From: a virus
IMG/VR virus record: IMGVR_UViG_3300006104_000014
Location: 13,360 to 77,359 of that record
Length of the DNA stretch: 64,000 nucleotides
Reading direction: 5' to 3' (one strand)
Position numbers and translations under genes: made by a program. The first letter of the stretch is position 1. Each line of letters starts with the position of its first letter. The notes below the pieces were generated by a model that was not told where the DNA came from, did not search any database, and was given only the letters and a program-made list of their open reading frames with translations. Positions 23,568-57,943 of this stretch are shown here, in pieces.

Positions 23568-23589
23568 AACTTTTCCTTTCTTTTAGGAG

Positions 23590-42805: not shown

Positions 42806-42879
42806 ATCTCCTACCAGGACTCCCCGGGATTTCCGGGAATGCAATGGGACCAATTGGCCTTTAATTACTTAGGCCTATT

Positions 42880-44013: not shown

Positions 44014-44023
44014 TTCCTCCACT

Positions 44024-44082
44024 TAGCCTGTCTCATCAGTACCAGTAGGCTAATTCCGGTAGAGGCCTCACGGCCTTTCGAC
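44024..44082 (-). ncRNA. Hammerhead ribozyme type II (HH1)
   Basis: GTC GAAA GGCC-GTGA-GGCC TC^TACCGG..CTGGTA CTGATGA GAC; pseudoknot AGCCT/AGGCT. Confidence 0.92.
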
Positions 44083-44486
44083 TACCGCAGATCGTTAGCG
44101 GCATCTTCTGGGAACTTCTGCTCGTATGCCCTGGCAATGACTCCGTCACTGCTCAGCTTCATCATGTCGAACACCTCAATCCAGAGTCCTGAGATACTCT
44201 TGGAGATCCGACGGTAAGAAGCAGACTGTGTCATGTACTTCTCCTTCTTCTCCTTCCTGTCTTCGGACTGTTCCTCCTTCTCTTCAGACTCGGCGTACTC
44301 AATGAACCGGTTGCTGTGGGCAAGCAATGCTGACAAGATCCGGTCCCACTGTTCGTAGGACAACTCGATGGAAACCGTCAACGGTTCTTGCATCCTTTCT
44401 TTCTGTGCCCTGTAAGTCTCGATACGAGTATCGAAGTCACCGTCGATCTTGTCCACCAACTCCTGGGTTGTCTCTTCCGCTTCCAT
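44082..44486 (-). CDS. Hypothetical protein
   Basis: 134 aa between HH2 and HH1. Confidence 0.75.
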   Translation of the reverse strand: MEAEETTQELVDKIDGDFDTRIETYRAQKERMQEPLTVSIELSYEQWDRILSALLAHSNRFIEYAESEEKEEQSEDRKEKKEKYMTQSASYRRISKSISGLWIEVFDMMKLSSDGVIARAYEQKFPEDAANDLR

Positions 44487-44498
44487 ATTTCCCCCTAG

Positions 44499-44557
44499 TA
44501 GTCTGTCTCATCAGGTGTGGTAGACTAATTCCACACTACGCCTCACGGCGTTTCGAC
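44499..44557 (-). ncRNA. Hammerhead ribozyme type II (HH2)
   Basis: GTC GAAA CGCC-GTGA-GGCG TA^GTGTGG..CCACAC CTGATGA GAC; TAGTCT/AGACTA. Confidence 0.92.
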
Positions 44558-44566
44558 CGTACCTTT

Positions 44567-44905
44567 TTAAGCGTACTCGCGGTTTTCACCGATGTACCGT
44601 ACGTACTTCTTGTATGTACCATTAGGTTGACGTCGGATTGTAGTCTCATAAGGCAACTTGTCTACCTCGTAACCGTTTTGCTTGTTGAACTTGGTCATGG
44701 GCACATGCATAAGCGTTGCCAAAATAGTAGTCGTTGAACGATAAGTGTTGTGCTCACTCCAAAGGAACCACACACCTGGGTTGTCCTTTAGCTGCTTCTC
44801 CCGGATTATGGTCCTTATCGAAAGGTTCCTGCTTCCGGGTAGAGGGTCAACGATGGCTACTGGCTCTTCTTGTTGCATCTCAAACTTACTATACACCCTG
44901 TACAT
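44567..44905 (-). CDS. Hypothetical protein
   Basis: 112 aa between HH3 and HH2. Confidence 0.7.
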   Translation of the reverse strand: MYRVYSKFEMQQEEPVAIVDPLPGSRNLSIRTIIREKQLKDNPGVWFLWSEHNTYRSTTTILATLMHVPMTKFNKQNGYEVDKLPYETTIRRQPNGTYKKYVRYIGENREYA

Positions 44906-44923
44906 GTTGAGCTCCTTACTATG

Positions 44924-44981
44924 GGCCTGTCTCCTCAGTGCAGTTAGGCCAAATCCTGCAGACGCCTTACGGCGTTTCGAC
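44924..44981 (-). ncRNA. Hammerhead ribozyme type II (HH3)
   Basis: GTC GAAA CGCC-GTAA-GGCG TC^TGCAG..CTGCA CTGAGGA GAC; GGCCT/AGGCC. Confidence 0.92.
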
Positions 44982-45334
44982 TAGTGGATACCGTAGTAAT
45001 CGAAGAGTTCTTCGATGGGATCCATCTCACGTCGGAGTATGTCATTTGCAACTCTGGAAGCCAATTCGAAGGTGTCGTAGTAGGCGTTGTGGTAAATACC
45101 ACCCATCTTACTCTTAATCTCCATCTCCAGCTTGTATGGGCCTGAGTCACCACCAAGTGTGGAGATCATCACATCAAACGAATTGGGCCAGCGGGATGAG
45201 TCAAAATTCTCATCAGAGTGCAACACCAAACCTGCATCGTTGACAATGCGGTAATTGTGGATACCGTATCCGTCAAGATCGATTACACTCGTCAACTTCC
45301 ACTTCACACCATCTACTTCGTAATCCGTCTTCAT
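44981..45334 (-). CDS. Hypothetical protein (start MKTDYEV)
   Basis: ATGA overlap with upstream small ORF. Confidence 0.7.
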   Translation of the reverse strand: MKTDYEVDGVKWKLTSVIDLDGYGIHNYRIVNDAGLVLHSDENFDSSRWPNSFDVMISTLGGDSGPYKLEMEIKSKMGGIYHNAYYDTFELASRVANDILRREMDPIEELFDYYGIH

Positions 45335-45507
45335 CGCATTGCATCCTTCCAAACAATGTTTTGGGCGTAGGTAACACTCTGTCTACCATCGATGTGGCCA
45401 ACAACTACTTTGCAACGGCCACCTTGAGTAGCAAAACTCTCAACAATGGCAATCTGTCCTTTGACCGTACAAACACGGCCAATATCGGACACCTTCAGCT
45501 GATTCAT
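45331..45507 (-). CDS. Small hypothetical protein (58 aa, MNQLKVSDIG...)
   Basis: Manual translation; GGAGG RBS directly after HH4. Confidence 0.7.
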   Translation of the reverse strand: MNQLKVSDIGRVCTVKGQIAIVESFATQGGRCKVVVGHIDGRQSVTYAQNIVWKDAMR

Positions 45508-45519
45508 TGTTCCTCCATT

Positions 45520-45578
45520 TGGTCTGCCTCATCAGCACCGGTGGACCAGTTCCGGTGGACGCCTCACGGCGTTTCGGC
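45520..45578 (-). ncRNA. Hammerhead ribozyme type II (HH4)
   Basis: GCC GAAA CGCC-GTGA-GGCG TC^CACCGG..CCGGTG CTGATGA GGC; TGGTC/GACCA. Confidence 0.92.
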
Positions 45579-45589
45579 ATTACTACCGA

Positions 45590-46195
45590 TTACTTCTTGG
45601 CCTTGGCCAGCTTCGTGTTCCAGTCCAGCATGTCAGGACGGATTGGCTCCAAACGTGCCTGAACTCTCATCTGTCCAACCTCGCAGAGCCGAGTTCCAAC
45701 GGACACATACAATCCGTTCTTGACGGCCTGCTTACGGAGGTAACACGCAAAGGCGTCACGCTTGTGGTAAGGAACATCCACGATGTGGACTTCACCGTTC
45801 AACAGCTTATCGATGTCAAACAAACGTGACCACAAGACGTATCGGCTGCCCTTGTTGAGGCTACCGGATCGCTTCTTGTCCTTATTGGACTTCCTGGTCT
45901 TGACACTCTTCGTGTCAGGTCCTGGGTCTTCCTGCTTCATGGGGACAAGGGGCTTAGACTCTGACACCTTTTTAACACTGGTGTCATAAAAGACCTTGTT
46001 ACCGGCCTTCATCGTCTGGTCCATTAAAGCACTGCAAAGAACCTCGTTGGACGAGTGTTCCAGGATACGACTCAGGAAGATATCGATTGCCTGATCGACA
46101 ATCTCTTCCTTGGTCGTAGGGGTAGGGTTTATGTAAACCAACAGGCACTCAATAAGCTGCAGCTTCTGTTGGGACACGGGGGACAGCTCTTGCAT
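45590..46195 (-). CDS. Basic hypothetical protein, possibly DNA-binding
   Basis: 201 aa between HH5 and HH4. Confidence 0.65.
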   Translation of the reverse strand: MQELSPVSQQKLQLIECLLVYINPTPTTKEEIVDQAIDIFLSRILEHSSNEVLCSALMDQTMKAGNKVFYDTSVKKVSESKPLVPMKQEDPGPDTKSVKTRKSNKDKKRSGSLNKGSRYVLWSRLFDIDKLLNGEVHIVDVPYHKRDAFACYLRKQAVKNGLYVSVGTRLCEVGQMRVQARLEPIRPDMLDWNTKLAKAKK

Positions 46196-46225
46196 GTCTT
46201 TCTCCCATTTCTCACTGATAACAAC

Positions 46226-46286
46226 GATCTGCCATCATCAGGCCTAAGGTGATCAATCCTTAGACGACGCCTCACGGCGTTTCGGC
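46226..46286 (-). ncRNA. Hammerhead ribozyme type II (HH5)
   Basis: GCC GAAA CGCC-GTGA-GGCG TC^GTCTAAGG..CCTTAGGC CTGATGA T GGC; GATC/GATC. Confidence 0.9.
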
Positions 46287-46300
46287 ATTACTACCGATTA

Positions 46301-46744
46301 CTACAGGTACACCATCCAATCAAAGGAGGACCGGTCCGAAACTCGGATGGTCTTGTCCGTTGAAGCCTGCAACAACCGGATCTGGTTGTCAATCTCTGAA
46401 AAGTTCGGCTCCTGAGGCTCTTGAGGCTTCGTGTACCAGTCATTAGTCAAAAACGCTGGGTCCAAGCCGGACAAGTCAACCCTTGGGGCCACCGGCTCCC
46501 AACTGTAGCCTTGGATGTGGAATCCAATCTTTCCATCCTTACTGGTGTAAAACCCACCACGGTTTGCAAATTCCACTTCATTGGCCTTGATCCAGGCCTT
46601 TACGGCAACTTCCACTGCCTTGTTCCAGGTCTTCAGACGTGTAGGGTAAGCCTTGACTTCCTCCACGTAACGAGCCATACGGTCCACTTTCCACTGCTCG
46701 AGAGCATCGATCAGGTATTGCTTCTCATACTTGTAGCTTGCCAT
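46301..46744 (-). CDS. Hypothetical protein (start MASYKY)
   Basis: GGAGG RBS; between HH6 and HH5. Confidence 0.75.
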   Translation of the reverse strand: MASYKYEKQYLIDALEQWKVDRMARYVEEVKAYPTRLKTWNKAVEVAVKAWIKANEVEFANRGGFYTSKDGKIGFHIQGYSWEPVAPRVDLSGLDPAFLTNDWYTKPQEPQEPNFSEIDNQIRLLQASTDKTIRVSDRSSFDWMVYL

Positions 46745-46775
46745 CAGGCATTCCTCCAAAGGAACACTGAATCAA

Positions 46776-46835
46776 CGGTTGTCTCATCAGGCCTGGGGTA
46801 CCGCACCCCAGACGACATCCATAGGATGTTTCGAC
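46776..46835 (-). ncRNA. Hammerhead ribozyme type II (HH6)
   Basis: GTC GAAA CATCC-TAT-GGATG TC^GTCTGGGG..CCCCAGGC CTGATGA GAC; CGGT/ACCG. Confidence 0.9.
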
Positions 46836-46870
46836 CTTACTAACACTACCTACTATATCCTTAGGTACAT

Positions 46871-46928
46871 TTCCCCCAAAGGATATATTATAATAAATTC
46901 CCGAATATTGCAAATTTATAATAAATAG
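46871..46928 (-). promoter_or_regulatory. Repeated strong early promoter
   Basis: AT-rich UP tract, TTGCAA-TATTCGGGAATTTATTA-TAATAT; near-identical to 49811-49867. Confidence 0.75.
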
Positions 46929-46942
46929 TAGGTGCAGGGGAG

Positions 46943-46970
46943 TGGGCAGTTTACGGTCGTACCCAGGACC
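46943..46970 (-). ncRNA. Compact H-type pseudoknot motif, copy A
   Basis: GGTC-CTGGGTAC-GACC-GTAAAC-TGCCCA. Confidence 0.55.
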
Positions 46971-46981
46971 TAACAGTTGGC

Positions 46982-47320
46982 CTACAGATCTTGCAACTCT
47001 TCGTCTTCTGCAAAGATGTTACCATCAAACACATCGGTCTCATCGACGTCATCGATTCCAAAGACCTCATCGGCCATCTCTTCAACCTCTTCAAGGAGGT
47101 CGGATGAGAAGGTGGTCACCACAGGAAGCACCTTAGCAACATTGTCACCAGTGTGGACCTCCTCGGAAACTCGACCACTCTTGTCCTCCCAAAGTACTCG
47201 GACGAAGTAGTCGCCCTCGTGATCTTCGGTTGGCACCTCAATGACCACACCGTTCCATTCCTTGGAACGTGGGGTCTTCTTCCGCCAAGTGACCTTTTGG
47301 CCCTCTGAGAAGTTCATCAT
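46982..47320 (-). CDS. SH3-like protein with acidic tail
   Basis: FSEGQKVTW..GVVIE..VRVLWED. Confidence 0.7.
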   Translation of the reverse strand: MMNFSEGQKVTWRKKTPRSKEWNGVVIEVPTEDHEGDYFVRVLWEDKSGRVSEEVHTGDNVAKVLPVVTTFSSDLLEEVEEMADEVFGIDDVDETDVFDGNIFAEDEELQDL

Positions 47321-47335
47321 TTCTATCTCCTTACT

Positions 47336-47394
47336 ATTAGCCTGTCATCTTCAGCACCGGGTGGCTAATCCCGATGGACCTATTAGGTTTCGAC
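47336..47394 (-). ncRNA. Hammerhead ribozyme type II (HH7)
   Basis: GTC GAAA CCT-AAT-AGG TC^CATCGGG..CCCGGTG CTGAAGA T GAC; TAGCC/GGCTA. Confidence 0.88.
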
Positions 47395-47499
47395 TAACTA
47401 CACTAATTAATTGACGGTAGCAACATTAAGTAGACTACATCTCAATGTTCCGTACCTACTACCTTACTTACTATACCCTTTATTTTAACGGGCTAAGAA

Positions 47500-47527
47500 T
47501 GGGCCTTTTATTGTCATACCCAGGACA
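47500..47527 (-). ncRNA. Compact H-type pseudoknot motif, copy B
   Basis: TGTC-CTGGGTAT-GACA-ATAAAA-GGCCCA. Confidence 0.55.
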
Positions 47528-47539
47528 TTAGGAGTGTTA

Positions 47540-47857
47540 CTACCTTATTGCATCCACTCCGTAATATTGCCCATCCTTATCAATGAACTCTCTCTTCAAC
47601 GTAGTCAATGCCCAATTTGAAGCATCCAAGAAGTTATCGAAAGATTGTTCAAACTTAGCTTCACCCATTCGTCCAGCAAGGCCAACTCCAGCTTTGAAGG
47701 ATTCATCGGCCATATGAACAATATCAGCAAAACTGATATCATCTTGCTTGGTTGGGTTCCAAGGACGTTCTTCAAGGGTCCAATAATAACCCTCATCACC
47801 CCCTACGCCACATTCCAACCAAAAAGCTCCGTCGATACTATAGTTCTTACTATCCAT
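47540..47857 (-). CDS. Hypothetical protein, paralogue of 52605..52934
   Basis: VGLAGR.G and C-terminal YG.DAIR shared. Confidence 0.7.
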   Translation of the reverse strand: MDSKNYSIDGAFWLECGVGGDEGYYWTLEERPWNPTKQDDISFADIVHMADESFKAGVGLAGRMGEAKFEQSFDNFLDASNWALTTLKREFIDKDGQYYGVDAIR

Positions 47858-48011
47858 TATGGCCTTTCATCTTCTTTCATCAAATCGTGATTAGCTGGTG
47901 GATAATCCCAATCTTCGGTGTGCATACAATCATACCCTGCAATCCAGTTGGAGCACATCCTCAGATGGTTTTCACGGGCCAACACCATCTCTTCATACGA
48001 GTTGAATAGCA

Positions 48012-48251
48012 TTAATCCTCCTCTCTTTCTCTTACTTCACTGTTGGTGACTCTACCGTTGATACCCAACGAATGATCAGGAGGGTTCAACAAAAGACCAC
48101 GACTAGCCATGAAGTTGTCCATAATCACCTCACTAGCTTTGAGTCGGTCCTCGTTGAGTTGCAGGAGATCTTCATCGGTGATCTTCTCCTTACCATCAGC
48201 TACCATCACAAACATGTAGTAGTTGGCTAGATACTCTCTGGTAACTTCCAT
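48012..48251 (-). CDS. Hypothetical protein
   Basis: 79 aa coupled ORF. Confidence 0.65.
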   Translation of the reverse strand: MEVTREYLANYYMFVMVADGKEKITDEDLLQLNEDRLKASEVIMDNFMASRGLLLNPPDHSLGINGRVTNSEVREREED

Positions 48252-48481
48252 TATATCTCCTCTACTGGTGGGTTACAACACTTACACTCGCCACCGCCCC
48301 CTGGGCCGGTAACTGAGAAACTACCATCTCTGTTTTGGGTCAATCCAGTCCATACTGCAACCTGACCATAATCTTCGATGGACCATACTGAGCCTGGAAA
48401 GGCCGTATGCATAGCAGCAACGAAATCATCTTCGTCCTTAAAAGCTACCTTACTCATCGTTCTCCTTCTTAGCCAGCTCAT
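48251..48481 (-). CDS. Hypothetical protein
   Basis: 76 aa ORF; true start probably MSKVAF. Confidence 0.6.
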   Translation of the reverse strand: MSWLRRRTMSKVAFKDEDDFVAAMHTAFPGSVWSIEDYGQVAVWTGLTQNRDGSFSVTGPGGGGECKCCNPPVEEI

Positions 48482-48833
48482 TACGTTGGAAGATGTCCAA
48501 GGTCTCTTCGTAGGTCATACCGGCAACCTCGTACCATGGTGCATCGAACAGGTGGTGTCCTTCGAGTATGGCTACTGCACCATGCTCTTCACCAATCTGA
48601 CCGCCAACCTGCCATCCTCCGGTGTTACAATTGTTTTCACTATCATACGGACCGAACTCAAAGTACGTACTGATACTAAAGAACTCATCGTAGGCATTCT
48701 GGGAGATCAGCTCCTGAGACAACTGACCCAAGACGTACCTCTCCTGGGTTTCGTTGGACTCCTTTACTTCATCGGTCATGACATCATAACCACCATGACG
48801 TACTGCCATGTACTTGATTTCACGGTACTTCAT
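48450..48833 (-). CDS. Hypothetical protein
   Basis: 127 aa, TAAGGAG RBS. Confidence 0.7.
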   Translation of the reverse strand: MKYREIKYMAVRHGGYDVMTDEVKESNETQERYVLGQLSQELISQNAYDEFFSISTYFEFGPYDSENNCNTGGWQVGGQIGEEHGAVAILEGHHLFDAPWYEVAGMTYEETLDIFQRNELAKKENDE

Positions 48834-48845
48834 TATTGCTCCTTA

Positions 48846-49043
48846 CTAGTAGTTTGTCTTTTGACAATCTGGACAGGCCAACCACAACTCATCGGCTTGG
48901 GTATCTAGGTGGGCCCTCCATTGGTCATCATAACCATCTGGGTCAGCTACCTCCTCCTTCCACTTTTCGTCTCTAACCTTATAGCAAAAATCACACTGTT
49001 GCATTTGTTTACTTTCTGTTGTATGGGTTGTCACTGACATCAA
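48846..49043 (-). CDS. Small CxxC protein
   Basis: 65 aa. Confidence 0.55.
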   Translation of the reverse strand: MMSVTTHTTESKQMQQCDFCYKVRDEKWKEEVADPDGYDDQWRAHLDTQADELWLACPDCQKTNY

Positions 49044-49356
49044 TCATCCAAGGGCTGACCCAACCGGTATCTTGCTTCTCTCGGATGTCCTTAGCGGTCA
49101 TACCACAAGGGCAACCTTGATCACCCCACCAAATCAATGTACCACAGCAAAGGGAAGGCTCCATACCGGGAACACGTCCAATCTTTTGCTTACACATCAC
49201 ACAAGGCTCATCCTTGTTGGTATCATCAACGAAGTGCATCACCAAAACTTCTGGGTCAACGGTAACTCCAAGGTCATAAGCAGCACACATCCAACACCAG
49301 ATGTGACCTTCATTCTTATCAATGAAGTACTCTAGCATCTCTTGGTCCACTGTCAT
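49009..49356 (-). CDS. Cys-rich hypothetical protein
   Basis: 115 aa. Confidence 0.65.
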   Translation of the reverse strand: MTVDQEMLEYFIDKNEGHIWCWMCAAYDLGVTVDPEVLVMHFVDDTNKDEPCVMCKQKIGRVPGMEPSLCCGTLIWWGDQGCPCGMTAKDIREKQDTGWVSPWMIDVSDNPYNRK

Positions 49357-49535
49357 CGCTTATCCTCTCTGTTAGACTTGAGCACATGCTCTTTCCCCCA
49401 CATGGTTGCTTCGAACTCCGAAGCCGTAACCCTATTGGAGACCCAATCACAAGTACATGTAACGATGTACCGTGGCTTATCCTTTTCAACTGGGATCTTA
49501 CTCTCAGTCCAGATACTTACCGTTGCTTCATGCAT
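49353..49535 (-). CDS. Small C2H-type zinc protein
   Basis: CTCDWVS..W...H; related to 49963..50163. Confidence 0.6.
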   Translation of the reverse strand: MHEATVSIWTESKIPVEKDKPRYIVTCTCDWVSNRVTASEFEATMWGKEHVLKSNREDKR

Positions 49536-49537
49536 AC

Positions 49538-49780
49538 TTACTCACTTTCTAGCATTTCGTCGTAACAACTACCACAAACAAACGTCCCAATCAACGCCCT
49601 TTCATCTAAGCGTAATTCAGGAAATGCTTTCTCTAAGGACAACTCACGGTTAAGCCATTTCATTATCCTTTTCTCTTTTACGATCAAGAGGTAAATAATC
49701 TCACATTCTACACACTCAACCTCAACTCCAATCTTACCATGGCCAATACCATCTAGGTAGACCAAATCATAACTGTCCAA
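49538..49780 (-). CDS. Zinc-binding protein, paralogue of 43738..44013
   Basis: CVEC, AFPEL..DER, CGSCYDEM. Confidence 0.65.
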   Translation of the reverse strand: MDSYDLVYLDGIGHGKIGVEVECVECEIIYLLIVKEKRIMKWLNRELSLEKAFPELRLDERALIGTFVCGSCYDEMLESE

Positions 49781-49810
49781 ACAGGTCTACCTCCTTATCC
49801 TTAGTACATA

Positions 49811-49867
49811 TTACCCCAAAGGATATATTATAATAAATTCCCGAATATTGCAAATTTATAATAAATA
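49811..49867 (-). promoter_or_regulatory. Repeated strong early promoter
   Basis: About 50 nt identical to the 46871-46928 copy. Confidence 0.75.
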
Positions 49868-49962
49868 AGAGTTACTACTGTTTCTCTGTCTATGGGTCCC
49901 TATTATACCCCATCCAGTGTATGAGCATAAGAGACCTAATTGTAATAAGGTCTCACACAATA

Positions 49963-50163
49963 CTAACCCCACCTACTAAATATGGGTTTATCCACGTAAG
50001 TGCTTGTACTCACATGGTTTGAAGCCCAAACCTTTGCAATAAATTTGGTTGTATAAAGCTTGGGGTCAGACCATCCACATTCACATATTGCTTTGTAAAG
50101 GTGGACATTCTTACCACTTACTCTATATGGACCAACCTTAACTGCTTTGGCGTAATGCTTCAT
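49963..50163 (-). CDS. Small C2H-type zinc protein
   Basis: CECGWS..W...H. Confidence 0.6.
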   Translation of the reverse strand: MKHYAKAVKVGPYRVSGKNVHLYKAICECGWSDPKLYTTKFIAKVWASNHVSTSTYVDKPIFSRWG

Positions 50164-50325
50164 TCTGACTCAGCAGGTGGAAAAGGCTCCTGGGACCATT
50201 CTTGCTTTTGAACGGTCTTACCAGACTTTTCTACTGACCAGGTAGTGCGTACCCAAGCACGTGCCTTTGAAACAAACTTAACTGTCTGACGCATATTATC
50301 TCTTTCTCTTACCCTTAATTGGGAG

Positions 50326-50407
50326 TGCCCGGAGCGGGACTCGAACCCGCACGACTTTCGTCACTGGCACCTAAAGCCAGCGTGTCTGCCTATTCCACCA
50401 TCCGGGC
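50326..50407 (-). tRNA. tRNA-Leu(UAG)
   Basis: GCCCGGA/TCCGGGC acceptor, CTGGC-TTTAGGT-GCCAG, long variable arm. Confidence 0.93.
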
Positions 50408-50412
50408 GGATA

Positions 50413-50799
50413 CTACAGAGTATAAACTTCCTTACCCTTTTGCTGGGAATACCTTACAGTAGCCCAACTTGAATCTAAAAGTGATCCATACTTATCTTCA
50501 GTAGCAACAATCATATTATCGGATACGTCAACAATTTTCCTATTACGGTGAATAAAGGGCAACGACTCCAATACCGTTGTTTCACCCTTACTATAATCAC
50601 CTTGCAGCTCCTTAAAGGTCGGAGGATAAACGTTAATTTTATACCCCAACTTGCAAGATAGATCATGAAATTGTTGTTCGGAGCCAATACAGCCACCATG
50701 ATAAACTTCAGACGGGCTTAACCCTTCCAACTTATCTTTGAGTTTAACGACTTCATCTTCGGTCATCTTACCTTTATGCCCTACAAAACCAACTTTCAT
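50413..50799 (-). CDS. SLOG (DprA/YspA-like) family protein
   Basis: VGFVG, YHGGC.G, RNRKIVD.SD, W.TVRY. Confidence 0.65.
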   Translation of the reverse strand: MKVGFVGHKGKMTEDEVVKLKDKLEGLSPSEVYHGGCIGSEQQFHDLSCKLGYKINVYPPTFKELQGDYSKGETTVLESLPFIHRNRKIVDVSDNMIVATEDKYGSLLDSSWATVRYSQQKGKEVYTL

Positions 50800-51122: not shown

Positions 51123-51124
51123 TT

Positions 51125-51523
51125 TTATTCCTCCGAATTTGATTCACAACTAGAACAGTGGGTATCGTAGATATTATCTAAAATGTCACAGCAGTTTTCA
51201 CAATAGTTATCTTCCTCCTCTTCACTTTCTTGGTCTTCTGGGTCTCCGATAAATATGATCGTCATACTTGCAATACGGCCATCCTCATAGGTCACATATA
51301 CTGGGTAATTTCCATCTCCGTACCCAGTAGAGCAAACGGCAGCTATACCATCGAATAGTGTTCCAGACTTAGCACTAAGGGTCGTCTTACAAGCACCATC
51401 GTAGGAAAAATCACCTGCCTCATCCTCACCTGGGTAATCGTTAGCGTACCAATCACTCAGGTAACATGGATCAACAAGCATCATTTGTCCACTGTCTACG
51501 CCAATACGTCCGATCAATTCCAT
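51125..51523 (-). CDS. DUF4241-like protein (start MELIGRIG)
   Basis: GVDSGQMMLVDPCY, STGYGDG.YPVY. Confidence 0.65.
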   Translation of the reverse strand: MELIGRIGVDSGQMMLVDPCYLSDWYANDYPGEDEAGDFSYDGACKTTLSAKSGTLFDGIAAVCSTGYGDGNYPVYVTYEDGRIASMTIIFIGDPEDQESEEEEDNYCENCCDILDNIYDTHCSSCESNSEE

Positions 51524-51524
51524 C

Positions 51525-51962
51525 TTATTCCTCCTCTTCCCTCTTCTGGAACTTTCCATTCTTCCACTCCATGAAGTCTTCATCGTAGTAGTCCCAGTTA
51601 GCGTCTTGGTATGCTAACAACAACTTTCTAGCGTCGTAACCTTCGTACCAGACATTCAGGTCAACTGGAGTAGTAAACTTAGCAGACGTTTCAGGAATGA
51701 TCTGAATGCAATCTTCTTCCATATACATCATATCGATGCAACCTTCATCAACTTCGGCATAACAAAGGAACTCAGTAGTTCCAGCAATCTCATTGTCAAC
51801 AGACCAATGCCACTTGGTGTCTGGAAGAATGTACTTACTGTACCAAAGCAACCCAAGGGTGTCGGCTAGTTGGTGGATATCACCGTCGAACTCGATGACC
51901 TCATCACTGTCGAAACGGTAAGTTCCACGACTTGCACAATAATCAATAACTCGATACTTCAC
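51525..51962 (-). CDS. Acidic hypothetical protein
   Basis: 145 aa, AAGGAG RBS. Confidence 0.65.
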   Translation of the reverse strand: MKYRVIDYCASRGTYRFDSDEVIEFDGDIHQLADTLGLLWYSKYILPDTKWHWSVDNEIAGTTEFLCYAEVDEGCIDMMYMEEDCIQIIPETSAKFTTPVDLNVWYEGYDARKLLLAYQDANWDYYDEDFMEWKNGKFQKREEEE

Positions 51963-51979
51963 TTGTTTTCTCCTTTTCT

Positions 51980-52264
51980 TTAGATACTATTAAGCAGCTT
52001 AACATAGGCTTCTTCAGCAGCAAGTTGGGCAGCTGTAAGATCAAAGCTGTCGCCCCCTTCAATGTTTTCTGGGATGGTGTAAACAACCCCAACCTCCCAG
52101 TGGAACGGAGTTTCTCGTCCACCCAGCTGGACTGTAGCATAAACACTCTCAATTACTACTTCTGACTTACCCTCATCTGCAGGGTGACTAATCAACTCAA
52201 AGCTAGCAGGATAACCACCTGGGCCACCTCCACTATTATATTCCCAAACACCTTGTAATTTCAT
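51980..52264 (-). CDS. Hypothetical protein
   Basis: 94 aa; GGAGG RBS right after HH8. Confidence 0.7.
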   Translation of the reverse strand: MKLQGVWEYNSGGGPGGYPASFELISHPADEGKSEVVIESVYATVQLGGRETPFHWEVGVVYTIPENIEGGDSFDLTAAQLAAEEAYVKLLNSI

Positions 52265-52276
52265 ACTTCCTCCAAT

Positions 52277-52350
52277 TTAGTCTGTCTCATCAGGTATGGT
52301 AAACTAATTCCATACGATGGTCCATGCTGGATGCATGGGACCATTTCGAC
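52277..52350 (-). ncRNA. Hammerhead ribozyme type II (HH8, long stem III)
   Basis: GTC GAAA TGGTC..GACCA TC^GTATGG..CCATAC CTGATGA GAC; TTAGTT/GACTAA. Confidence 0.9.
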
Positions 52351-52601
52351 TACACGTTTTCCCGGTAATCAACGTCACCGTCGGGGCCACCTTCGGGCCA
52401 GATTGGCTCAAGGGCTGGTGGCTCATCAAAGAATCCTCGACAAAAGTCTAACAACACTTCGGCCAATTCTTCGATGGGTCCGGGTTGGGACTCTAACAGA
52501 TCAGTAGGCTGAGGCAATTCCTTCCAGAGTGCCAAGGCCTCCCTATCTGTAAACGTAAGAATTAACTTACGTTCATTGGAAGCTGTGTAATCCACTTTCA
52601 T
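52350..52601 (-). CDS. Hypothetical protein
   Basis: 83 aa. Confidence 0.7.
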   Translation of the reverse strand: MKVDYTASNERKLILTFTDREALALWKELPQPTDLLESQPGPIEELAEVLLDFCRGFFDEPPALEPIWPEGGPDGDVDYRENV

Positions 52602-52604
52602 CTC

Positions 52605-52934
52605 CTATCTAATTGCGTCGATGCCGTAAAGCTTACCTTCTGGTGAAAGACCTTCACGGTAATACACTTCATAGGCAGCTTGGGCCGCCTTCTCAAAGGT
52701 GTCTTCAATACCTTCGAACTCAACACCACCGGAACGTCCAGCCAAACCAACCTGCCACTGGAACTCGACGGTGTCGGCCAAGATCTGGATAAACAGCTTC
52801 TCAGCAGCAACTTCGTCGTAGGGGACGTTGTCGTCAAAGATGTCGAAGATGTTGTAGATGGCTACACCATCTTCGATCTCTGCAATACCCCATTCGATAC
52901 CGTCCCAACGGTAAGTTTGTTGGTACTCTGACAT
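52605..52934 (-). CDS. Hypothetical protein, paralogue of 47540..47857
   Basis: 109 aa; TAAGGAG RBS after HH9. Confidence 0.7.
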   Translation of the reverse strand: MSEYQQTYRWDGIEWGIAEIEDGVAIYNIFDIFDDNVPYDEVAAEKLFIQILADTVEFQWQVGLAGRSGGVEFEGIEDTFEKAAQAAYEVYYREGLSPEGKLYGIDAIR

Positions 52935-52952
52935 TATTGTCTCCTTACTCTA

Positions 52953-53010
52953 AGCCTGTCTCTTCAGTGCCAGGTGGCTAATCCTGACAGACGCCTTACG
53001 GCGTTTCGAC
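52953..53010 (-). ncRNA. Hammerhead ribozyme type II (HH9)
   Basis: GTC GAAA CGCC-GTAA-GGCG TC^TGTCAGG..CCTGGCA CTGAAGA GAC; AGCC/GGCT. Confidence 0.92.
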
Positions 53011-53468
53011 TAGATTTCCTCCTTATTGTTGGTGCTGACATCTGACATCTCGGGTTGAATTAATCTATTTTGCCAAAGATAGAAGTTACTCTCCAACCTA
53101 TCTCCAAACGTACGAATATGGTCGGCCAAATCAACTGTTTCTTCGTCTAAGAACTGCTCAACTAGGAAGTGAGAAGCAATCTCCAACGTGAAAGTAAAGA
53201 ATCCGTCACCATAGCAAACATCAACTGGGACGAAGCCAAATTCATTTGGCACATAACCAACACCTTCATTGTTAATTACAGCTATGTTAAGGTGTCTGTC
53301 AACCTTCCAAGACTCCGACTCAGGAGTAAATCCAACAGCCGTCCGAAAAGCCAATCTAATATTGCCTGAACCACCAGTTTGTGACTCAGCAATAAGTCCA
53401 AGTTGCTTTTCTAACTCTTGCTTCTTAACACGTCGGAGGATAATACCCCGTTCACGTTCATATGACAT
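53010..53468 (-). CDS. Hypothetical protein
   Basis: 152 aa. Confidence 0.7.
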   Translation of the reverse strand: MSYERERGIILRRVKKQELEKQLGLIAESQTGGSGNIRLAFRTAVGFTPESESWKVDRHLNIAVINNEGVGYVPNEFGFVPVDVCYGDGFFTFTLEIASHFLVEQFLDEETVDLADHIRTFGDRLESNFYLWQNRLIQPEMSDVSTNNKEEI

Positions 53469-53872
53469 TACTTACTCTCCTTTTTCGGAAACAACTCATC
53501 TTCACCATCCAGCTTTGCAAGCTTGAAGGCATCTTTCATCAACAACACACCCTTACCATCAACTGTCAACCAATCGTCAACAAAGTTACTGGCAGCAGAC
53601 TTAGCAGCCTCTTCAAAGGAGCTGAACACCTCACAATAAGTCGGCTCACTAGTTGGCCCAGATGAAGACCAAAAGGACGGGCTCACCTTAACTTCGAACT
53701 TATCTCCATCTACATGGATCTCAGCGTTCACGGATTCAAAGAACAAGCCAAGGGGCTCGTACAATCCATCCTCACCAATACCACACTGCATTAAGGTGTA
53801 TTGGCCACTATCAAACTCCTCCCATTCGGTTTGACCCAACTTGGTGTCCTGAATAATAATGAAGCTTTCCAT
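53468..53872 (-). CDS. Hypothetical protein (start MESFII)
   Basis: AGGAG RBS before ATG 53872; the track extension runs through HH10. Confidence 0.7.
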   Translation of the reverse strand: MESFIIIQDTKLGQTEWEEFDSGQYTLMQCGIGEDGLYEPLGLFFESVNAEIHVDGDKFEVKVSPSFWSSSGPTSEPTYCEVFSSFEEAAKSAASNFVDDWLTVDGKGVLLMKDAFKLAKLDGEDELFPKKESK

Positions 53873-53889
53873 TGTTTCTCCTACTTTCA

Positions 53890-53950
53890 GGCCTGTCATC
53901 ATCAGGTACGGTAGGCCATTTCCGTACAAGCCCCTTTCGGGGCTTTCGAC
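53890..53950 (-). ncRNA. Hammerhead ribozyme type II (HH10)
   Basis: GTC GAAA GCCCC-GAAA-GGGGC TT^GTACGG..CCGTAC CTGATGA T GAC; GGCCT/AGGCC. Confidence 0.9.
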
Positions 53951-54405
53951 TACTTTTTGGAGTAACCAAAGTAATGACGCCAATCGGACCAAACACGTCC
54001 ATCATTAGCAGTCCAGTTACTGGTGTCAGCAACATACTCACGACTACCGGTGACATACTCGTTAATCAGTTGGTGGTGGCACATTTCTGGAGTAGCCAAT
54101 GTACCACAGTTACCACACATAAACACACCAACTTCCTTCCAGTTAGCTGGGACTTCATTGGTGTGTTCACTGTAACCACCAGGACCTTGATGAGGAACCA
54201 ACAAAGCATCGTAGTTACCATTACCGTAGATTTCGTAGTCCTCCTTGGTAGTCCATTGCAACTCTACTGGACTAAATTCATCAGCAGCGTTACAGTGGGG
54301 GCAAACCAAGGCCATACCGTTGTCATCAATCCACATACCAAATGGACTAGCATTGACCATCTCATCATCAAAGAACCACTTACGGTCCTTAAGGTCACTT
54401 GACAT
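53950..54405 (-). CDS. Zinc-ribbon hypothetical protein
   Basis: CPHC and CGNC; between HH11 and HH10. Confidence 0.7.
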   Translation of the reverse strand: MSSDLKDRKWFFDDEMVNASPFGMWIDDNGMALVCPHCNAADEFSPVELQWTTKEDYEIYGNGNYDALLVPHQGPGGYSEHTNEVPANWKEVGVFMCGNCGTLATPEMCHHQLINEYVTGSREYVADTSNWTANDGRVWSDWRHYFGYSKK

Positions 54406-54420
54406 TTTTATCTCCTTACT

Positions 54421-54483
54421 ATTGATCTGTCATCATCAGGTGCAGGTGATCAATCCTACACGACTGCCTAAGGCAGTTTCGAC
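54421..54483 (-). ncRNA. Hammerhead ribozyme type II (HH11)
   Basis: GTC GAAA CTGCC-TTA-GGCAG TC^GTGTAGG..CCTGCAC CTGATGA T GAC; TTGATC/GATCAA. Confidence 0.9.
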
Positions 54484-54767
54484 TACATTACAGCTTTGAA
54501 GGTAGCATCCCACCATTCTTCGTAAATTTCTTCTGAAACTTCGGTGTTATAAAACTTACTTCCTTCAACTACCAAGACCCTACTACCTACATCGTTGAGG
54601 GGGTCTAGGATGAAAACTCCTTCAACTACCTCCAGTGGGTTTGCCAAACGCCAATCACTACGGATAAGGTTAAAGGCTTCATCAAAACTAGTGGTCTCAA
54701 GACGTCCAAGGTATTCTCCTACTGGACCGCCATGATCTCTAACTACGTGGATATCATACTTAAGCAT
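54483..54767 (-). CDS. Hypothetical protein
   Basis: 94 aa. Confidence 0.7.
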   Translation of the reverse strand: MLKYDIHVVRDHGGPVGEYLGRLETTSFDEAFNLIRSDWRLANPLEVVEGVFILDPLNDVGSRVLVVEGSKFYNTEVSEEIYEEWWDATFKAVM

Positions 54768-54799
54768 ATCACTTTCCTTACTGTTAATTGTTGACTAGA

Positions 54800-54828
54800 T
54801 AGGCAGTTTAAGCACATGCCCAGGTGCT
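54800..54828 (-). ncRNA. Compact H-type pseudoknot motif, copy C
   Basis: AGCAC-CTGGGCAT-GTGCT-TAAAC-TGCCTA. Confidence 0.55.
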
Positions 54829-54843
54829 CCTTAGGAGGGACCT

Positions 54844-55044
54844 TTAGATTACATCGAAGTACTTCATTGTAGTAACCAATAGATTATTGTAATCACCGGA
54901 AGTAGCCTCACTTTCGTAATCCTTCCAGTACTCATCGTACAGGTCATTACGCTTAAGTGCCTTTGAGGCCTTACCGAGGATAGAGAATGCATTACCATCC
55001 TCACCAACTAACTGCAACTCAATACCTGTGATTGACTCTGACAT
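54844..55044 (-). CDS. Conserved small phage hypothetical protein
   Basis: LVGEDGNAFSILG..SGDY..LL motif. Confidence 0.7.
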   Translation of the reverse strand: MSESITGIELQLVGEDGNAFSILGKASKALKRNDLYDEYWKDYESEATSGDYNNLLVTTMKYFDVI

Positions 55045-55472
55045 TATTGCTCCTCACTTTCAATTTTAAGCTCTGTAATAGTTGGATCATGGCTAAATAG
55101 ATTTTCAACTGCTCTCTTGAACCACGTGTAATCCTTGAACCCATCCTTCAAGGTATAAGACACCTTAGCCTTAATTCGTGGAGGCTTAACGATATCCTCA
55201 TAACGGATACCACGGATAAGGTTAGCAATATCAATACTATGTGGTTGCTCAACATCAAAGTAGGATAGTTCCTCAACCAAATTTTGTACTTCTGCTAGGA
55301 ATTCTTCACCTTGACTCGTAAGGTACTCAAGTTCAATTCCAGCAATGATACTATCAAGTCGACCGTAGTAGCCGTCAATTTCTTCGACGTAATTACTACG
55401 TGCGTTCTCAATATCATCAGCAGCTGACTTAAGGGTGTCAATTAGACACTCAATATCTAGTTGCTCAATCAC
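55044..55472 (-). CDS. Hypothetical protein
   Basis: 142 aa. Confidence 0.65.
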   Translation of the reverse strand: MIEQLDIECLIDTLKSAADDIENARSNYVEEIDGYYGRLDSIIAGIELEYLTSQGEEFLAEVQNLVEELSYFDVEQPHSIDIANLIRGIRYEDIVKPPRIKAKVSYTLKDGFKDYTWFKRAVENLFSHDPTITELKIESEEQ

Positions 55473-55953
55473 TTACTTCTCCTTTTTCTATTTGTTTTGC
55501 CCATCTACGTCGATCTACAACATCCATACCGCCCCACCAGCCTTCACTATCATCTAGAAGGGCTTCGGCTCTGCAGATCAACATTACTTTACAACCATTA
55601 CAAGCTTGCTCCAACTTTAATCTCAAACTGTAATTGGGCCTAGGTGTACTATAACCCAAAAACAGTTCGGATTGGTTAGCATGGCATTTACCATCCTTAT
55701 ACCACTCATGGTAACCACGTTCTAAACAGGAGATAAACTCATCTTTGCTCTTACGTTCAGAAGATTCGTAAATTGGTAACTCATCAACTTTTTGTAACCG
55801 ACTAATAGGATTCCACTCCTCTTTAGTCTTAGAATGACTAACAATCCAAAGGACTCTGGCCTTATTGCCGTTTACCTCCTGGACTGTTCCAAACCATTCT
55901 CTTTGGTTCGTCTTCTCAGTTAACCATTTAACGTAATCATCTTTAACTACCAT
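55465..55953 (-). CDS. WhiB-like transcription factor with N-terminal extra domain
   Basis: Four-Cys pattern C..ELF..ACNGCKVMLICRAEAL..GWWGGM..DRR. Confidence 0.7.
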   Translation of the reverse strand: MVVKDDYVKWLTEKTNQREWFGTVQEVNGNKARVLWIVSHSKTKEEWNPISRLQKVDELPIYESSERKSKDEFISCLERGYHEWYKDGKCHANQSELFLGYSTPRPNYSLRLKLEQACNGCKVMLICRAEALLDDSEGWWGGMDVVDRRRWAKQIEKGEVSD

Positions 55954-55974
55954 TAATTCCTCCTCCCCATTTCC

Positions 55975-56036
55975 TATTATACTTATTATATTTTCCCGAA
56001 TAATGCAAATTTATTTTAAATAGGAGTTCTTACTGC
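55975..56036 (-). promoter_or_regulatory. Repeated early promoter
   Basis: GCAGTAAGAACTCCTATTTAAA..TTGCAT-TATTCGGGAAAA..TATAAT. Confidence 0.65.
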
Positions 56037-56157
56037 TTATCTTCGTTGCTGACTAGTGTAGTGCCAGTCTTACTTACTTTTGCTGGAAACTTGACTACTT
56101 TGTTTCCATTCTTACCGGACTTAATTGAAAGCTTTTTATCACTCATGTTACTCTCCT

Positions 56158-56421
56158 TTAGTATAGAATTACTTCAAAAGTTCCAAATGAATGGCCACCG
56201 ACCATCAAATCAAGGTCGGTGTATCCATCGCTCTCCCAATAGTTAAGACAGTTGTTAATCTGCTCTCTGATTTTAGCAATGATATCTTCATCAATTACGT
56301 CACCAGGGTCAGCTGGGTTATCCAACAACTCAACCAACTTGTTGAGGTCAACATTGATGGCAACCTTCATCTCGGGTTGAAATACATTCGTATTTCCACC
56401 ATCCTTATACTGAGTCCTCAT
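56158..56421 (-). CDS. Hypothetical protein
   Basis: 87 aa. Confidence 0.65.
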   Translation of the reverse strand: MRTQYKDGGNTNVFQPEMKVAINVDLNKLVELLDNPADPGDVIDEDIIAKIREQINNCLNYWESDGYTDLDLMVGGHSFGTFEVILY

Positions 56422-56768
56422 ACTGGCAACCTCCCATTCTTAGCAGCAAACTCACGTCGCTGATCTACTGTCATCTTGCCAAGTTCATTGAGTTCATCAA
56501 ACGTAAGCTCAACAATGGCAAACTTACTGATATGGCCATACTTACCTGAATCCACATCAATATAGTACTTACGGGTATCTTCCACTTCCTTCTCCTTTTC
56601 TAGGTTACTTACTTCAGCAACATCCCACTCGATAATATTAGCAGCACAAAGGTGGTTGGACCACTCATGCCAGGGTTGAGGTTCATTGTCACTGGTATCT
56701 TCGTCAAATTCAACATCTGACTCATACCTTAGCGTAAGTGTAATATACACTTCTGACTTCTTACTCAT
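56418..56768 (-). CDS. Hypothetical protein
   Basis: 116 aa, AGGAG RBS. Confidence 0.7.
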   Translation of the reverse strand: MSKKSEVYITLTLRYESDVEFDEDTSDNEPQPWHEWSNHLCAANIIEWDVAEVSNLEKEKEVEDTRKYYIDVDSGKYGHISKFAIVELTFDELNELGKMTVDQRREFAAKNGRLPV

Positions 56769-56857
56769 CTTACTCTCCTTTTTATTTTTTATTACCCTAC
56801 TATTTTATACTAGTTCCCTTGTAATCCTAATACAAAATATGTTGAATAAAATATGGG

Positions 56858-57067
56858 CTAAGCTACTTCCCAGTTTTTATCAAGCCCACACTCTTGGTGT
56901 ACAATCTCACCATCACTACTAGGGTCCTTTGGGTCGTACATCTCAGCAGCATCTCCATCATCCATATAGATTGCACAACCACAAATTGCACAATCATAAT
57001 CTGGTTCTGGGTCTTCTGGTGGTGTAAACCAATTTGCTGAAGGACCTTCATAACCACTCATACCCAT
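56858..57067 (-). CDS. Small acidic zinc-binding protein
   Basis: GP..W..PP.D, CAIC, HQEC. Confidence 0.65.
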   Translation of the reverse strand: MGMSGYEGPSANWFTPPEDPEPDYDCAICGCAIYMDDGDAAEMYDPKDPSSDGEIVHQECGLDKNWEVA

Positions 57068-57258
57068 GGACCTCCTGTTGGACCAAATGAATCATGGTAG
57101 CTTCTAACTTTGTCTTCTTCATACTGCTCTTGACGCTCTGCAGCTTCGGAACCATCATCCTCGAAGCAAGAACACTCACTGGTCTCATGTTCCTCACAAT
57201 AGTCTTCATCGTCTGGTGGGTCATACCAACTCATCGGTGGACCATCAATGAACCTCAT
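57058..57258 (-). CDS. Small acidic Cys protein
   Basis: GPPMSWYDPPDD, similar to neighbour's N-terminus. Confidence 0.6.
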   Translation of the reverse strand: MRFIDGPPMSWYDPPDDEDYCEEHETSECSCFEDDGSEAAERQEQYEEDKVRSYHDSFGPTGGPWV

Positions 57259-57395
57259 ATTTCCTCCTTAACGGTAACAAGATTTACAAGCAAAGTTATA
57301 AGAATTTTCGTCACAACCCTCAACAAAGAGTTGTTCAAAATCACTAACTGGTTTAACTATATGACAGCATTCACATTCTTGGGTTTGTTCTTTGA

Positions 57396-57587
57396 TCATT
57401 CTTCTTCTTTATCTTCAAAGTAACGGTCATCATACCAGCAAGGCTCTCCAACAGAGTGCCATACGCCTCCGTCTTGGTGCTCATATCGGTTACAATACCA
57501 CAAGTTAGGGTCTTCATTTGGACTAGTCCAATTACAACCTAACCCATCTGTGTGGCCACAGCATGGATAGTCTTCACATCTTGCCAT
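57396..57587 (-). CDS. Small Cys-rich protein (RCEDYPCCGH)
   Basis: 63 aa; AAGGAGG RBS after HH12. Confidence 0.7.
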   Translation of the reverse strand: MARCEDYPCCGHTDGLGCNWTSPNEDPNLWYCNRYEHQDGGVWHSVGEPCWYDDRYFEDKEEE

Positions 57588-57602
57588 TCTGCCTCCTTAC
57601 TA

Positions 57603-57661
57603 TAACCTATCTCATCAGGTGTAGACGGTTAACCCTACACGACCCCTCACGGGGTTTCGAC
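57603..57661 (-). ncRNA. Hammerhead ribozyme type II (HH12)
   Basis: GTC GAAA CCCC-GTGA-GGGG TC^GTGTAG..CTACAC CTGATGA GAT; TAACC/GGTTA. Confidence 0.9.
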
Positions 57662-57870
57662 TAGTTGTGGCAGCAATCTTCACACCAACCCAGGCCCCAA
57701 GGTTCAGTGGCTTCACACTCTTCGGGCCAAGTGTCGAACTTGCCTTCAATGTAGGGTACGTTACAACCGGGACATTTGCCGGTGTAGTCGTATTGTCCAG
57801 CATCCCTTGCCTCCAACCATTCTGCTTCGGTCATGAAGTTAGGGTTCTTACTAACAGGTGCAAGTAACAT
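57661..57870 (-). CDS. Small zinc-ribbon protein
   Basis: 69 aa between HH13 and HH12. Confidence 0.7.
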   Translation of the reverse strand: MLLAPVSKNPNFMTEAEWLEARDAGQYDYTGKCPGCNVPYIEGKFDTWPEECEATEPWGLGWCEDCCHN

Positions 57871-57882
57871 TTCGTCTCCTAG

Positions 57883-57943
57883 TAGTCTGTCTCATCAGGT
57901 ATGGTAGACTAATTCCATACAACTGCCCTTAGGCAGTTTCGAC
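57883..57943 (-). ncRNA. Hammerhead ribozyme type II (HH13)
   Basis: GTC GAAA CTGCC-TAAG-GGCAG TT^GTATGG..CCATAC CTGATGA GAC; TAGTCT/AGACTA. Confidence 0.9.

Follow-up and report, generated by a model that had tools for sequence, protein, structure and literature searches.

A 13-copy array of predicted pseudoknotted type II hammerhead ribozymes in the small-gene region of an actinophage-like freshwater phage

Clusters of type II hammerhead ribozymes with a pseudoknot between loop I and the 3' tail were described in prophages by Perreault et al. in 2011, with several sense-strand copies lying between varied small phage genes, and cutting of long phage transcripts into single-gene or operon-length mRNAs was proposed as their role; triple arrays were found to cut in vitro and in Escherichia coli (PMC3088659). 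In Desulfovibrio vulgaris, three type II hammerheads, two of which are direct neighbours, lie among phage-like genes and were active both in vivo and in vitro in a study by cyPhyRNA-seq (PMC8782182). Beyond these two reports, of 2011 and 2021, we found no paper on type II hammerheads in phage context in the literature searched, and a review still describes what hammerheads do for bacteria and phages as "largely elusive" (PMC6765202). Here we describe a window of 64,000 nucleotides (nt) of freshwater metagenome DNA with 42% G+C (IMG/VR record IMGVR_UViG_3300006104_000014, positions 13,360 to 77,359), in which 13 hammerhead elements, named HH1 to HH13 in order of position, are spread over 13.9 kb of the - strand. 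Positions given below are those of the window unless another contig is named. Because nearly all genes lie on the - strand, the ribozymes are sense-strand elements. Topology, pseudoknot, gene context and proposed role are all shared with the clusters of 2011. With a probability of roughly 70%, judged from sequence and predicted structure, the elements are 13 functional pseudoknotted type II hammerheads that cut polycistronic early-type mRNAs in an actinophage-like freshwater phage.

Each site was read individually, and the results showed the same order of parts in all 13 elements, namely a stem II 5' strand of 3 nt, GAAA, the stem III hairpin, a U-H cleavage site, the stem I hairpin, CUGANGA and the stem II 3' strand, after which comes a tail that can pair with loop I. 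The type II permutation, in which loops close both stem I and stem III while the open stem II bears both ends, was parsed in 13/13. All copies have the core C3-A9, G12-A14 and A15.1-U16.1 with an H17 that is not G, the GAAA being invariant, and all have the core-adjacent Watson-Crick pairs 10.1-11.1, 1.1-2.1 and 15.1-16.1, in agreement with the acceptance rules of Perreault et al. Position N7 in CUGANGA is U in 10 copies, A in two and G in one, and H17 is C in 10, U in two and A in one. An extra U stands between A9 and G10.1 in four copies (HH5, HH7, HH10 and HH11); an extra residue after A9 is tolerated, and a U at this place raised trans-cleavage 3-4-fold in the hammerhead of chrysanthemum chlorotic mottle viroid (CChMVd) (PMC3705267). 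An earlier note on this DNA, made by a model from the letters alone, had placed 13 complete type II cores on the coding strand. All 13 were reproduced at their sites, and so was the cut it had predicted for HH1 between 44062 and 44061, which was recovered by a parse anchored on the core motifs only.

The pairing of the elements was examined in a model-fitted alignment of the 13 copies (A3). Paired cells amounted to 92.6%, compared with 25.6-43.3% when the partners were slid by 1-3 columns. Compensatory double changes were observed in 13 of the 20 pairs, three pseudoknot pairs among them, and stems I, II and III as well as the pseudoknot all covary. In the core-anchored parse, the pseudoknot was formed by seven different sequence pairs among the copies, and its mean pairing was 5.3 bp for cognate and 3.0 bp for non-cognate partners. 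Covariation of this contact had been claimed before and was clearly recovered here. Four to seven contiguous Watson-Crick pairs make up the pseudoknot in 12 copies; in HH6 the parse over-extended stem I and left 3 bp, and by eye CGGU/ACCG pairs over 4 bp in a register shifted by one. Minimum free energy folding recovered stems I and III in 13/13 and stem II in 9/13, giving a three-way junction for most copies. Stem II is GUC/GAC in 10 of the 13, so that most neighbouring ribozymes have strands that fit one another. The stem I hairpin has 5-8 bp and begins at nt +1 past the cut, with no single-stranded overhang.

We ran the Rfam check that the earlier note had proposed. The family RF02276 (Hammerhead_II) showed three copies above the gathering cut-off of 37 bits (45518-45579, 46773-46836 and 52950-53011) and three further copies at 30.5-35.1 bits, with E<=0.014, so that six of the 13 were detected. 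Core, topology and pseudoknot tail are shared with the family. The array differs from it in a stem II of 3 bp, in the extra U after A9 in four copies and in a stem I shorter than that of the model, and because of these differences 10 copies fall below the gathering cut-off. A covariance model built from the 13 copies was run with filters off on the whole 77,359-bp genome, made up of the window and the contig part L001, and gave 13 matches of 54.6-81.9 bits, all on the - strand, with a runner-up at 15 bits; as such a model fits its own training copies by construction, the gap in score means that there are no further copies and is not an independent validation of the 13. A 15-bit match (L001 8032-8073) was rejected as an intragenic look-alike of 42 nt, too short for both hairpins. 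The descriptor script, which missed four of the 13 copies, gave 0 matches on the + strand and about 0 in shuffles. In an Rfam E-value scan of 40000-64000, no other ribozyme class was found in the ribozyme-free gaps. By core, topology, adjacent pairs and pseudoknot, all 13 elements belong to the type II hammerhead class as predicted ribozymes, and three of them also reach the Rfam cut-off. Their coordinates are listed in Table 1, together with those of the promoter-like repeats described below.

Table 1. Positions of the hammerhead elements and promoter-like repeats in the window. Predicted cuts are given as the two positions that flank them; "fused stop" means that the upstream UAG stop is fused to nt 1-2 of the element; scores are those against Rfam RF02276.
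Feature	Coordinates	Strand	Predicted cut	Rfam bits	Remarks
HH13	57879..57944	-	57921/57920		Type II hammerhead; H17 = U at 57921; fused stop
HH12	57599..57662	-	57641/57640		Stem II GUC/GAU; pseudoknot UAACC/GGUUA; fused stop
HH11	54420..54484	-	54462/54461		Extra U between A9 and G10.1; fused stop
HH10	53886..53951	-	53928/53927		Extra U10; H17 = U; fused stop
HH9	52948..53011	-	52990/52989	37.7	Above gathering score; fused stop
HH8	52274..52351	-	52316/52315		Long stem III (26-nt hairpin); fused stop
HH7	47335..47395	-	47377/47376	35.1	Short stem III (3 bp + A-U); extra U10; 144 nt past preceding gene
HH6	46771..46836	-	46814/46813	44.9	In predicted 5' leader, about 50 nt past -10 box of promoter-like repeat P46.9
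HH5	46222..46287	-	46266/46265		Stem II GCC/GGC; extra U10
HH4	45516..45579	-	45558/45557	46.7	Top Rfam match; stem II GCC/GGC
HH3	44919..44982	-	44961/44960		N7 = G; fused stop
HH2	44495..44558	-	44537/44536		H17 = A
HH1	44020..44083	-	44062/44061	31.2	Fused stop
P59.7 promoter-like repeat	59687..59753	-			3 mismatches to core; just downstream of terminase gene
P58.4 promoter-like repeat	58349..58432	-			TTTGCA, 16 nt, TATTAT; heads unit with HH13 and HH12
P56.0 promoter-like repeat	55970..56036	-			Heads unit with WhiB-like gene first, HH11-HH8 and tRNA-Leu
P49.8 promoter-like repeat	49800..49883	-			TTTGCA, 16 nt, TATAAT; heads unit with HH7
P46.9 promoter-like repeat	46860..46943	-			Heads unit with HH6-HH1
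P42.9 and P42.8 variant repeats	42733..42951	-			Mark downstream end of ribozyme-bearing region

The junctions between ribozymes and genes are built in a recurrent way. In eight of the 13 copies, the UAG stop of the upstream gene consists of the preceding U and the first two nucleotides of the ribozyme; HH7 also has a UAG at its 5' border, yet no long frame terminates there. On the downstream side, a Shine-Dalgarno (SD) site and a start codon follow all 13 copies, and the pseudoknot tail leads into a strong SD. For 11 copies the start codon lies 6-14 nt past the end of the element, and for HH5 and HH6 the distance is 26 nt, as the earlier note had it, including the longer gap at these two copies. 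The leaders predicted after cleavage are 50-56 nt long in 11 copies and about 70 nt for HH5 and HH6. The same design, with fused stop and leader into SD, recurs in the unrelated arrays L143, L144 and L146 and in the relative L145. Taking these four arrays together with the present one (40 ribozymes), UAG or UAA straddles the 5' border in 27 of the 40, and 24 of these stops close an open frame of at least 35 codons. This recurrence of the fused stop and of the fixed leader into SD in unrelated arrays suggests that the ribozyme is integrated with translation termination and initiation. Stop codons and SD sites go unmentioned in Perreault et al. (PMC3088659), and the recurrent fused stop codon is a new detail beyond the description of 2011. 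After cleavage the upstream product would keep its stop codon together with some 20 nt of RNA behind it, the last part of which is the stem III hairpin, and ribosomes should therefore terminate on it normally. As long as the RNA is uncut, stem II, GAAA and one half of stem III would lie under the terminating ribosome, and thus translation and ribozyme folding may interact.

A repeat search revealed a promoter-like repeat of about 70-84 nt on the - strand, which consists of an A/T-rich tract, TTTGCA, 16 nt, TATAAT and then CCTTTGGGG. Five close copies (at 59.7, 58.4, 56.0, 49.8 and 46.9 kb) and two variants (at 42.9 and 42.8 kb) were found, all on the coding strand and confined to the small-gene region. 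By chance, 0.08 matches to the 17-nt core would be expected, and 5 were found. The repeat probably provides early promoters or regulatory sites of the phage. Taken as sigma-70-like promoters, the copies would define about five early-type units, four with ribozymes and a fifth without. Starting from P58.4, the order is two genes, HH13, one gene, HH12 and six genes. The unit of P56.0 runs from the WhiB-like gene and three further genes through HH11, one gene, HH10, two genes, HH9, two genes and HH8 to five genes and a tRNA-Leu. Seven genes, HH7 and one gene follow P49.8, and the unit of P46.9 is composed of HH6, one gene, HH5, one gene, HH4, two genes, HH3, one gene, HH2, one gene, HH1 and two genes. 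HH6 starts at 46836, about 50 nt past the -10 box of P46.9 (which ends at 46887), and is the sole copy just after a promoter-like element. Terminator-like sites occur at shuffle expectation, which is compatible with long transcripts. The label "early region" used in the earlier note gains indirect support from the repeat found in this region only, from the small ORFans and from the WhiB-like factor. The tRNA-Leu(UAG) of the P56.0 unit is located at 50325-50407 (-). A separate 30-nt repeat occurs three times (46940-46969, 47497-47526 and 54797-54826) in otherwise empty intergenic gaps of 76-145 nt; read on the - strand, it has two arms that can pair over 6 bp into a hairpin (TGGGTA/TGCCCA for the copy at 46.9 kb), and no U-run trails it.

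The genes for a large terminase (TerL, 59761-61755), a portal (16342-18318) and a major head protein (10307-11320) are present, and the array therefore stands in a phage context. The portal is 35-45% identical to those of actinobacteriophage myoviruses such as Myrna, E3, Finch and Phrappuccino. The first gene after P56.0 encodes a WhiB-like protein of 162 aa (55465-55953, -) with a C-terminal WhiB domain (PF02467, E = 2e-7). Since the portal is actinophage-like and a WhiB-like gene is present, the host is likely an actinobacterium. The 20 ribozyme-adjacent proteins gave essentially no PHROG or Pfam match, and no homologues of them were found in the flanks of relatives, except for a DUF2786/DUF7168 protein and the WhiB domain. 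The gene for the protein with DUF2786 and DUF7168 (58593-59309, -) is the only one in or adjoining the small-gene region with full-length homologues in those flanks. A 201-aa protein encoded between HH5 and HH4 matched only itself among 5.8 billion proteins; it is also encoded on a 128.6-kb contig. Searches of viral contigs with this protein and with a 151-aa protein, both from single-gene units, yielded no relatives, and megablast of the array against 50,697 phage records gave no match. Three further tRNAs, Ile(UAU), Gln(UUG) and Thr(UGU), are located in the structural half (23049-23120, 23129-23201 and 23589-23661, -). A full-length amidase-signature enzyme (38954-40375, -; PF01425, E = 2e-71) is encoded between the small-gene region and the structural genes. 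In positions 1-42000 (-) of the window, Pfam gave no match for seven proteins of 621-722 aa, three of which (terminase, portal and one virion protein) have PHROG matches only; for this phage clade, most of the structural and internal proteins are thus uncharacterised.

TerL is shared at 62-77% identity by 22 viral contigs, and because many of these relatives are 90-133 kb long, the 77-kb contig is probably a partial genome. The earlier note had suggested a search of related contigs for the same arrangement. Fifteen relatives were scanned over their whole contigs with the covariance model, and hammerheads were indeed found in their small-gene block, in numbers of 0-5 only: eight relatives have none, and the others have 5, 4, 4, 3, 3, 2 and 1. 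In the relative with two copies, both are at the very end of the contig. In the relatives, the hammerheads are on the coding strand of the small-gene block, and this block, which adjoins TerL, is on the opposite strand to it. In the present genome TerL and the small-gene block share one strand, whereas in L006, L014 and L015 the block is opposite and converges on TerL; an inversion or rearrangement separates this genome from the three. Several copies of the relatives have core changes (CGAUAAC, UUGAUAAGA and CCGAUGA), while all 13 copies here are canonical, which is compatible with selection for catalysis; broken-core copies may score too low to be found. CGAUAAC replaces CGAAAC in four copies (L015 17275-17342 and 17942-18006; L016 16653-16717 and 17490-17555), and with its extra U in G12-A13-A14 it may be either a recurrent inactive form or a core variant. 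In the relatives L002, L006-L008, L014 and L016 a hammerhead directly precedes the DUF2786 gene, which is not the case here. As the relatives carry 0-5 copies, some of them core-altered, and as the DUF2786 junction differs, hammerhead copies are evidently being gained, lost and decaying within the clade, judging by these comparisons.

When viral contigs were scanned with a pattern, hammerheads of this type turned up in at least 119 stretches. Two unrelated viral contigs have 8 and 10 copies, within 3.2 and 3.4 kb respectively. The statement in the earlier note that no described phage was known with this many hammerheads so arranged loses its force in view of these two contigs, and an array of 13 copies is large without being exceptional. 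Some short contigs of the same freshwater samples match only a single ribozyme each, at 80-90% identity, and diverge exactly at its borders (45521-45576, 52953-53013, 57663 and 46290); other genomes of the community therefore carry similar hammerheads in different gene contexts. In contigs from four freshwater runs, strains were not seen to differ by insertion or deletion of a ribozyme.

In the mechanism that we propose, the ribozymes would be transcribed within the four multi-gene early-type units, and each would fold after passage of the polymerase and cut past H17. We infer the cleavage itself, the transcription as operons, the effect on stability and translation and the direction of this effect from the layout of the array. 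The upstream RNA would retain its stop codon, and the 20 nt or so that follow it, with the stem III hairpin at their end, would bear a 2',3'-cyclic phosphate. Past the cut, the RNA would open with a 5'-OH at the base that starts the stem I hairpin, and its leader would run through the 3' half of the ribozyme and the pseudoknot tail straight into the SD and start codon. Operon RNAs would by this means be turned into messages of one, two or several genes with defined hairpin ends, and the stability and translation of each message would be uncoupled from those of its neighbours. HH6 would also strip the triphosphate leader from the P46.9 unit in the fashion of a RiboJ insulator. RiboJ is an engineered type III hammerhead, derived from the satellite RNA of tobacco ringspot virus (sTRSV), with an added hairpin. 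As with RiboJ-type insulators, a cut in HH6 would remove a promoter-specific leader (the promoter being predicted) and leave a hairpin-headed 5' end before the ribosome-binding site; unlike RiboJ, only one of the 13 copies is at a transcript start, and the others are internal.

Several observations weigh against this proposal. Seven of the 13 copies went unreported by RF02276 even at E<=10, owing to the same 3-bp stem II, extra U and shorter stem I as above. The predicted accessibility of SD and AUG before and after cleavage showed no consistent direction. The earlier note had the array punctuating the region gene by gene, and this is so for six single-gene units between ribozyme pairs; three other units between ribozymes hold two genes each, and two ribozyme-free runs of 6-7 genes each (3.2 and 4.9 kb) are found inside the same transcription units. 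A complete relative of 124.7 kb with terminal repeats has 0 hammerheads, and from this genome and the ribozyme-free gene runs it follows that the function is dispensable. Moreover, in hosts with RNase J the 5'-OH could destabilise the downstream RNA instead. 5'-OH ends evade the 5'-monophosphate sensor of RNase E, and actinobacteria possess RNase J. The products of cleavage had been expected to be poor substrates for RNase E and J, and this stands as far as the sensor of RNase E is concerned; 5'-OH ends are substrates of the RNase J1 exonuclease, and the 5'-OH product of the glmS ribozyme is degraded, according to Collins 2007 as cited in PMC3328962. If the RNA is protected, the stem I hairpin at nt +1 must therefore be what protects it. 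The glmS ribozyme likewise cleaves itself within a bacterial mRNA and leaves a 5'-OH product on which the fate of the message depends. It differs in that its fold is another one, its cleavage is metabolite-dependent, and it destabilises its message through RNase J1, so that the direction of the effect cannot be assumed for this array.

The two halves of the ribozymes bear on an alternative of another kind, in which the ribozymes are the boundaries of exchangeable gene cassettes, besides or instead of processing RNA. Recombination of DNA in the conserved core, whether between phages that infect one cell together or inside the genome, would then exchange a unit made of a 3' half, the leader with its SD, the gene or genes with their stop, and the 5' half of the next ribozyme. 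Among the 13 copies, similarity of the 5' halves and of the 3' halves is uncorrelated (Mantel r = -0.002, p = 0.49). The 3' halves of HH8 and HH13 are 97% identical and their stem III 35%, and the 3' half of HH2 is 94% identical to that of HH13; conversely, HH2, HH4 and HH5 have an identical stem III hairpin and 3' halves of only 58-61% identity. HH4 and HH5 share 37 identical nt from the 5' half into the upstream flank, and the more similar two 3' halves are, the more similar the downstream leaders tend to be (r = 0.32, p = 0.03). In structure each half stands by itself, and because the 3-bp stem II is the sole part across both, the halves are freely exchangeable. The comparison points to independent histories of the two halves; in two other arrays, the copies were too diverged for the Mantel test to inform on this. 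All these patterns favour the exchange of cassettes, as do the flanked genes, which are ORFans absent from relatives, the one orthologous junction with a ribozyme in relatives and none here, and the same-sample contigs that match one ribozyme and diverge at its borders. However, the core in common amounts to no more than about 7-10 nt, a very small target for homologous recombination, stem III is so short that a conserved ancestral hairpin with fast-evolving 3' halves could mimic mosaicism, and no cassette with its flanking halves was found in a second genome. We therefore regard exchange at the ribozymes as a tentative possibility. If it were true, any two halves with matching stem II would make an active ribozyme, genes could be swapped without losing their expression signals, and the array would be a modular "plug-and-play" expression scaffold for fast-evolving accessory genes.

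The three remaining explanations concern what happens to the RNA. Cleavage might shorten message life, with 5'-OH ends feeding early mRNAs to the RNase J of the host as a protein-independent shut-off of early genes. The degradation of the 5'-OH product of glmS by RNase J1 (PMC3328962) is a precedent for this; the likely host belongs to the actinobacteria by its WhiB-like gene and actinophage-like portal, a group with RNase J, and the ribozymes are restricted to the early-type region with the promoter repeats. Against it, the 5'-OH would be on the first base of a 5-8 bp hairpin without overhang, and 5'-terminal stem-loops hinder 5' exonucleases. The tightly conserved leader into a strong SD also suggests that the downstream product is for translation, and we consider such a shut-off unlikely. 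Elements that no longer cut, being structured spacers or decaying relics, would account for the relatives with none or with core-substituted copies (CGAUAAC, UUGAUAAGA and CCGAUGA) and for the seven copies below Rfam detection. This is hard to reconcile with 13/13 copies that agree with the rules of Perreault et al. for the core and the core-adjacent pairs and with compensatory changes that preserve all stems and the pseudoknot; 13 intact canonical cores together with such changes make neutral decay unlikely, and we hold the absence of cutting to be very improbable. Hammerhead cleavage yields 2',3'-cyclic phosphate and 5'-OH ends, which are ligatable, and since most neighbouring ribozymes have stem II strands that fit one another (GUC/GAC in 10/13), doubly cut units might be joined into circular or spliced RNAs through ribozyme reversal or a ligase of the RtcB type. 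Spliced and circular products were sought in such clusters by Perreault et al. and none was found (PMC3088659), and this fate appears extremely improbable for the RNAs of the present array. Self-cleavage of early-type mRNAs into shorter messages remains the reading that we prefer.

Taken together, the arrangement is of the kind described in 2011, now seen in many uncultivated phages, and is not a new kind of system. Perreault et al. tested arrays of three copies versus 13 here, and the D. vulgaris hammerheads, for which cleavage was shown, are isolated or paired copies in a bacterial chromosome, in contrast to the 13-copy array of this phage genome. The new details are the recurrent fused stop with its fixed leader into the SD, the framework of promoter repeats with one 5'-leader ribozyme, and the independent, mosaic halves, none of which is mentioned in the work of 2011, together with the contrast between this genome and its relatives. 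With 13 canonical copies, a one-strand gene layout and promoter-like repeats that would define the transcripts, the array is a clean specimen for the question of what hammerheads do in phages, and close relatives with 0-5 copies, some of them degenerate, are natural controls. The 13 ribozymes, being natural, diverse in sequence and mutually compatible insulators, would also make a set of parts for operon engineering.

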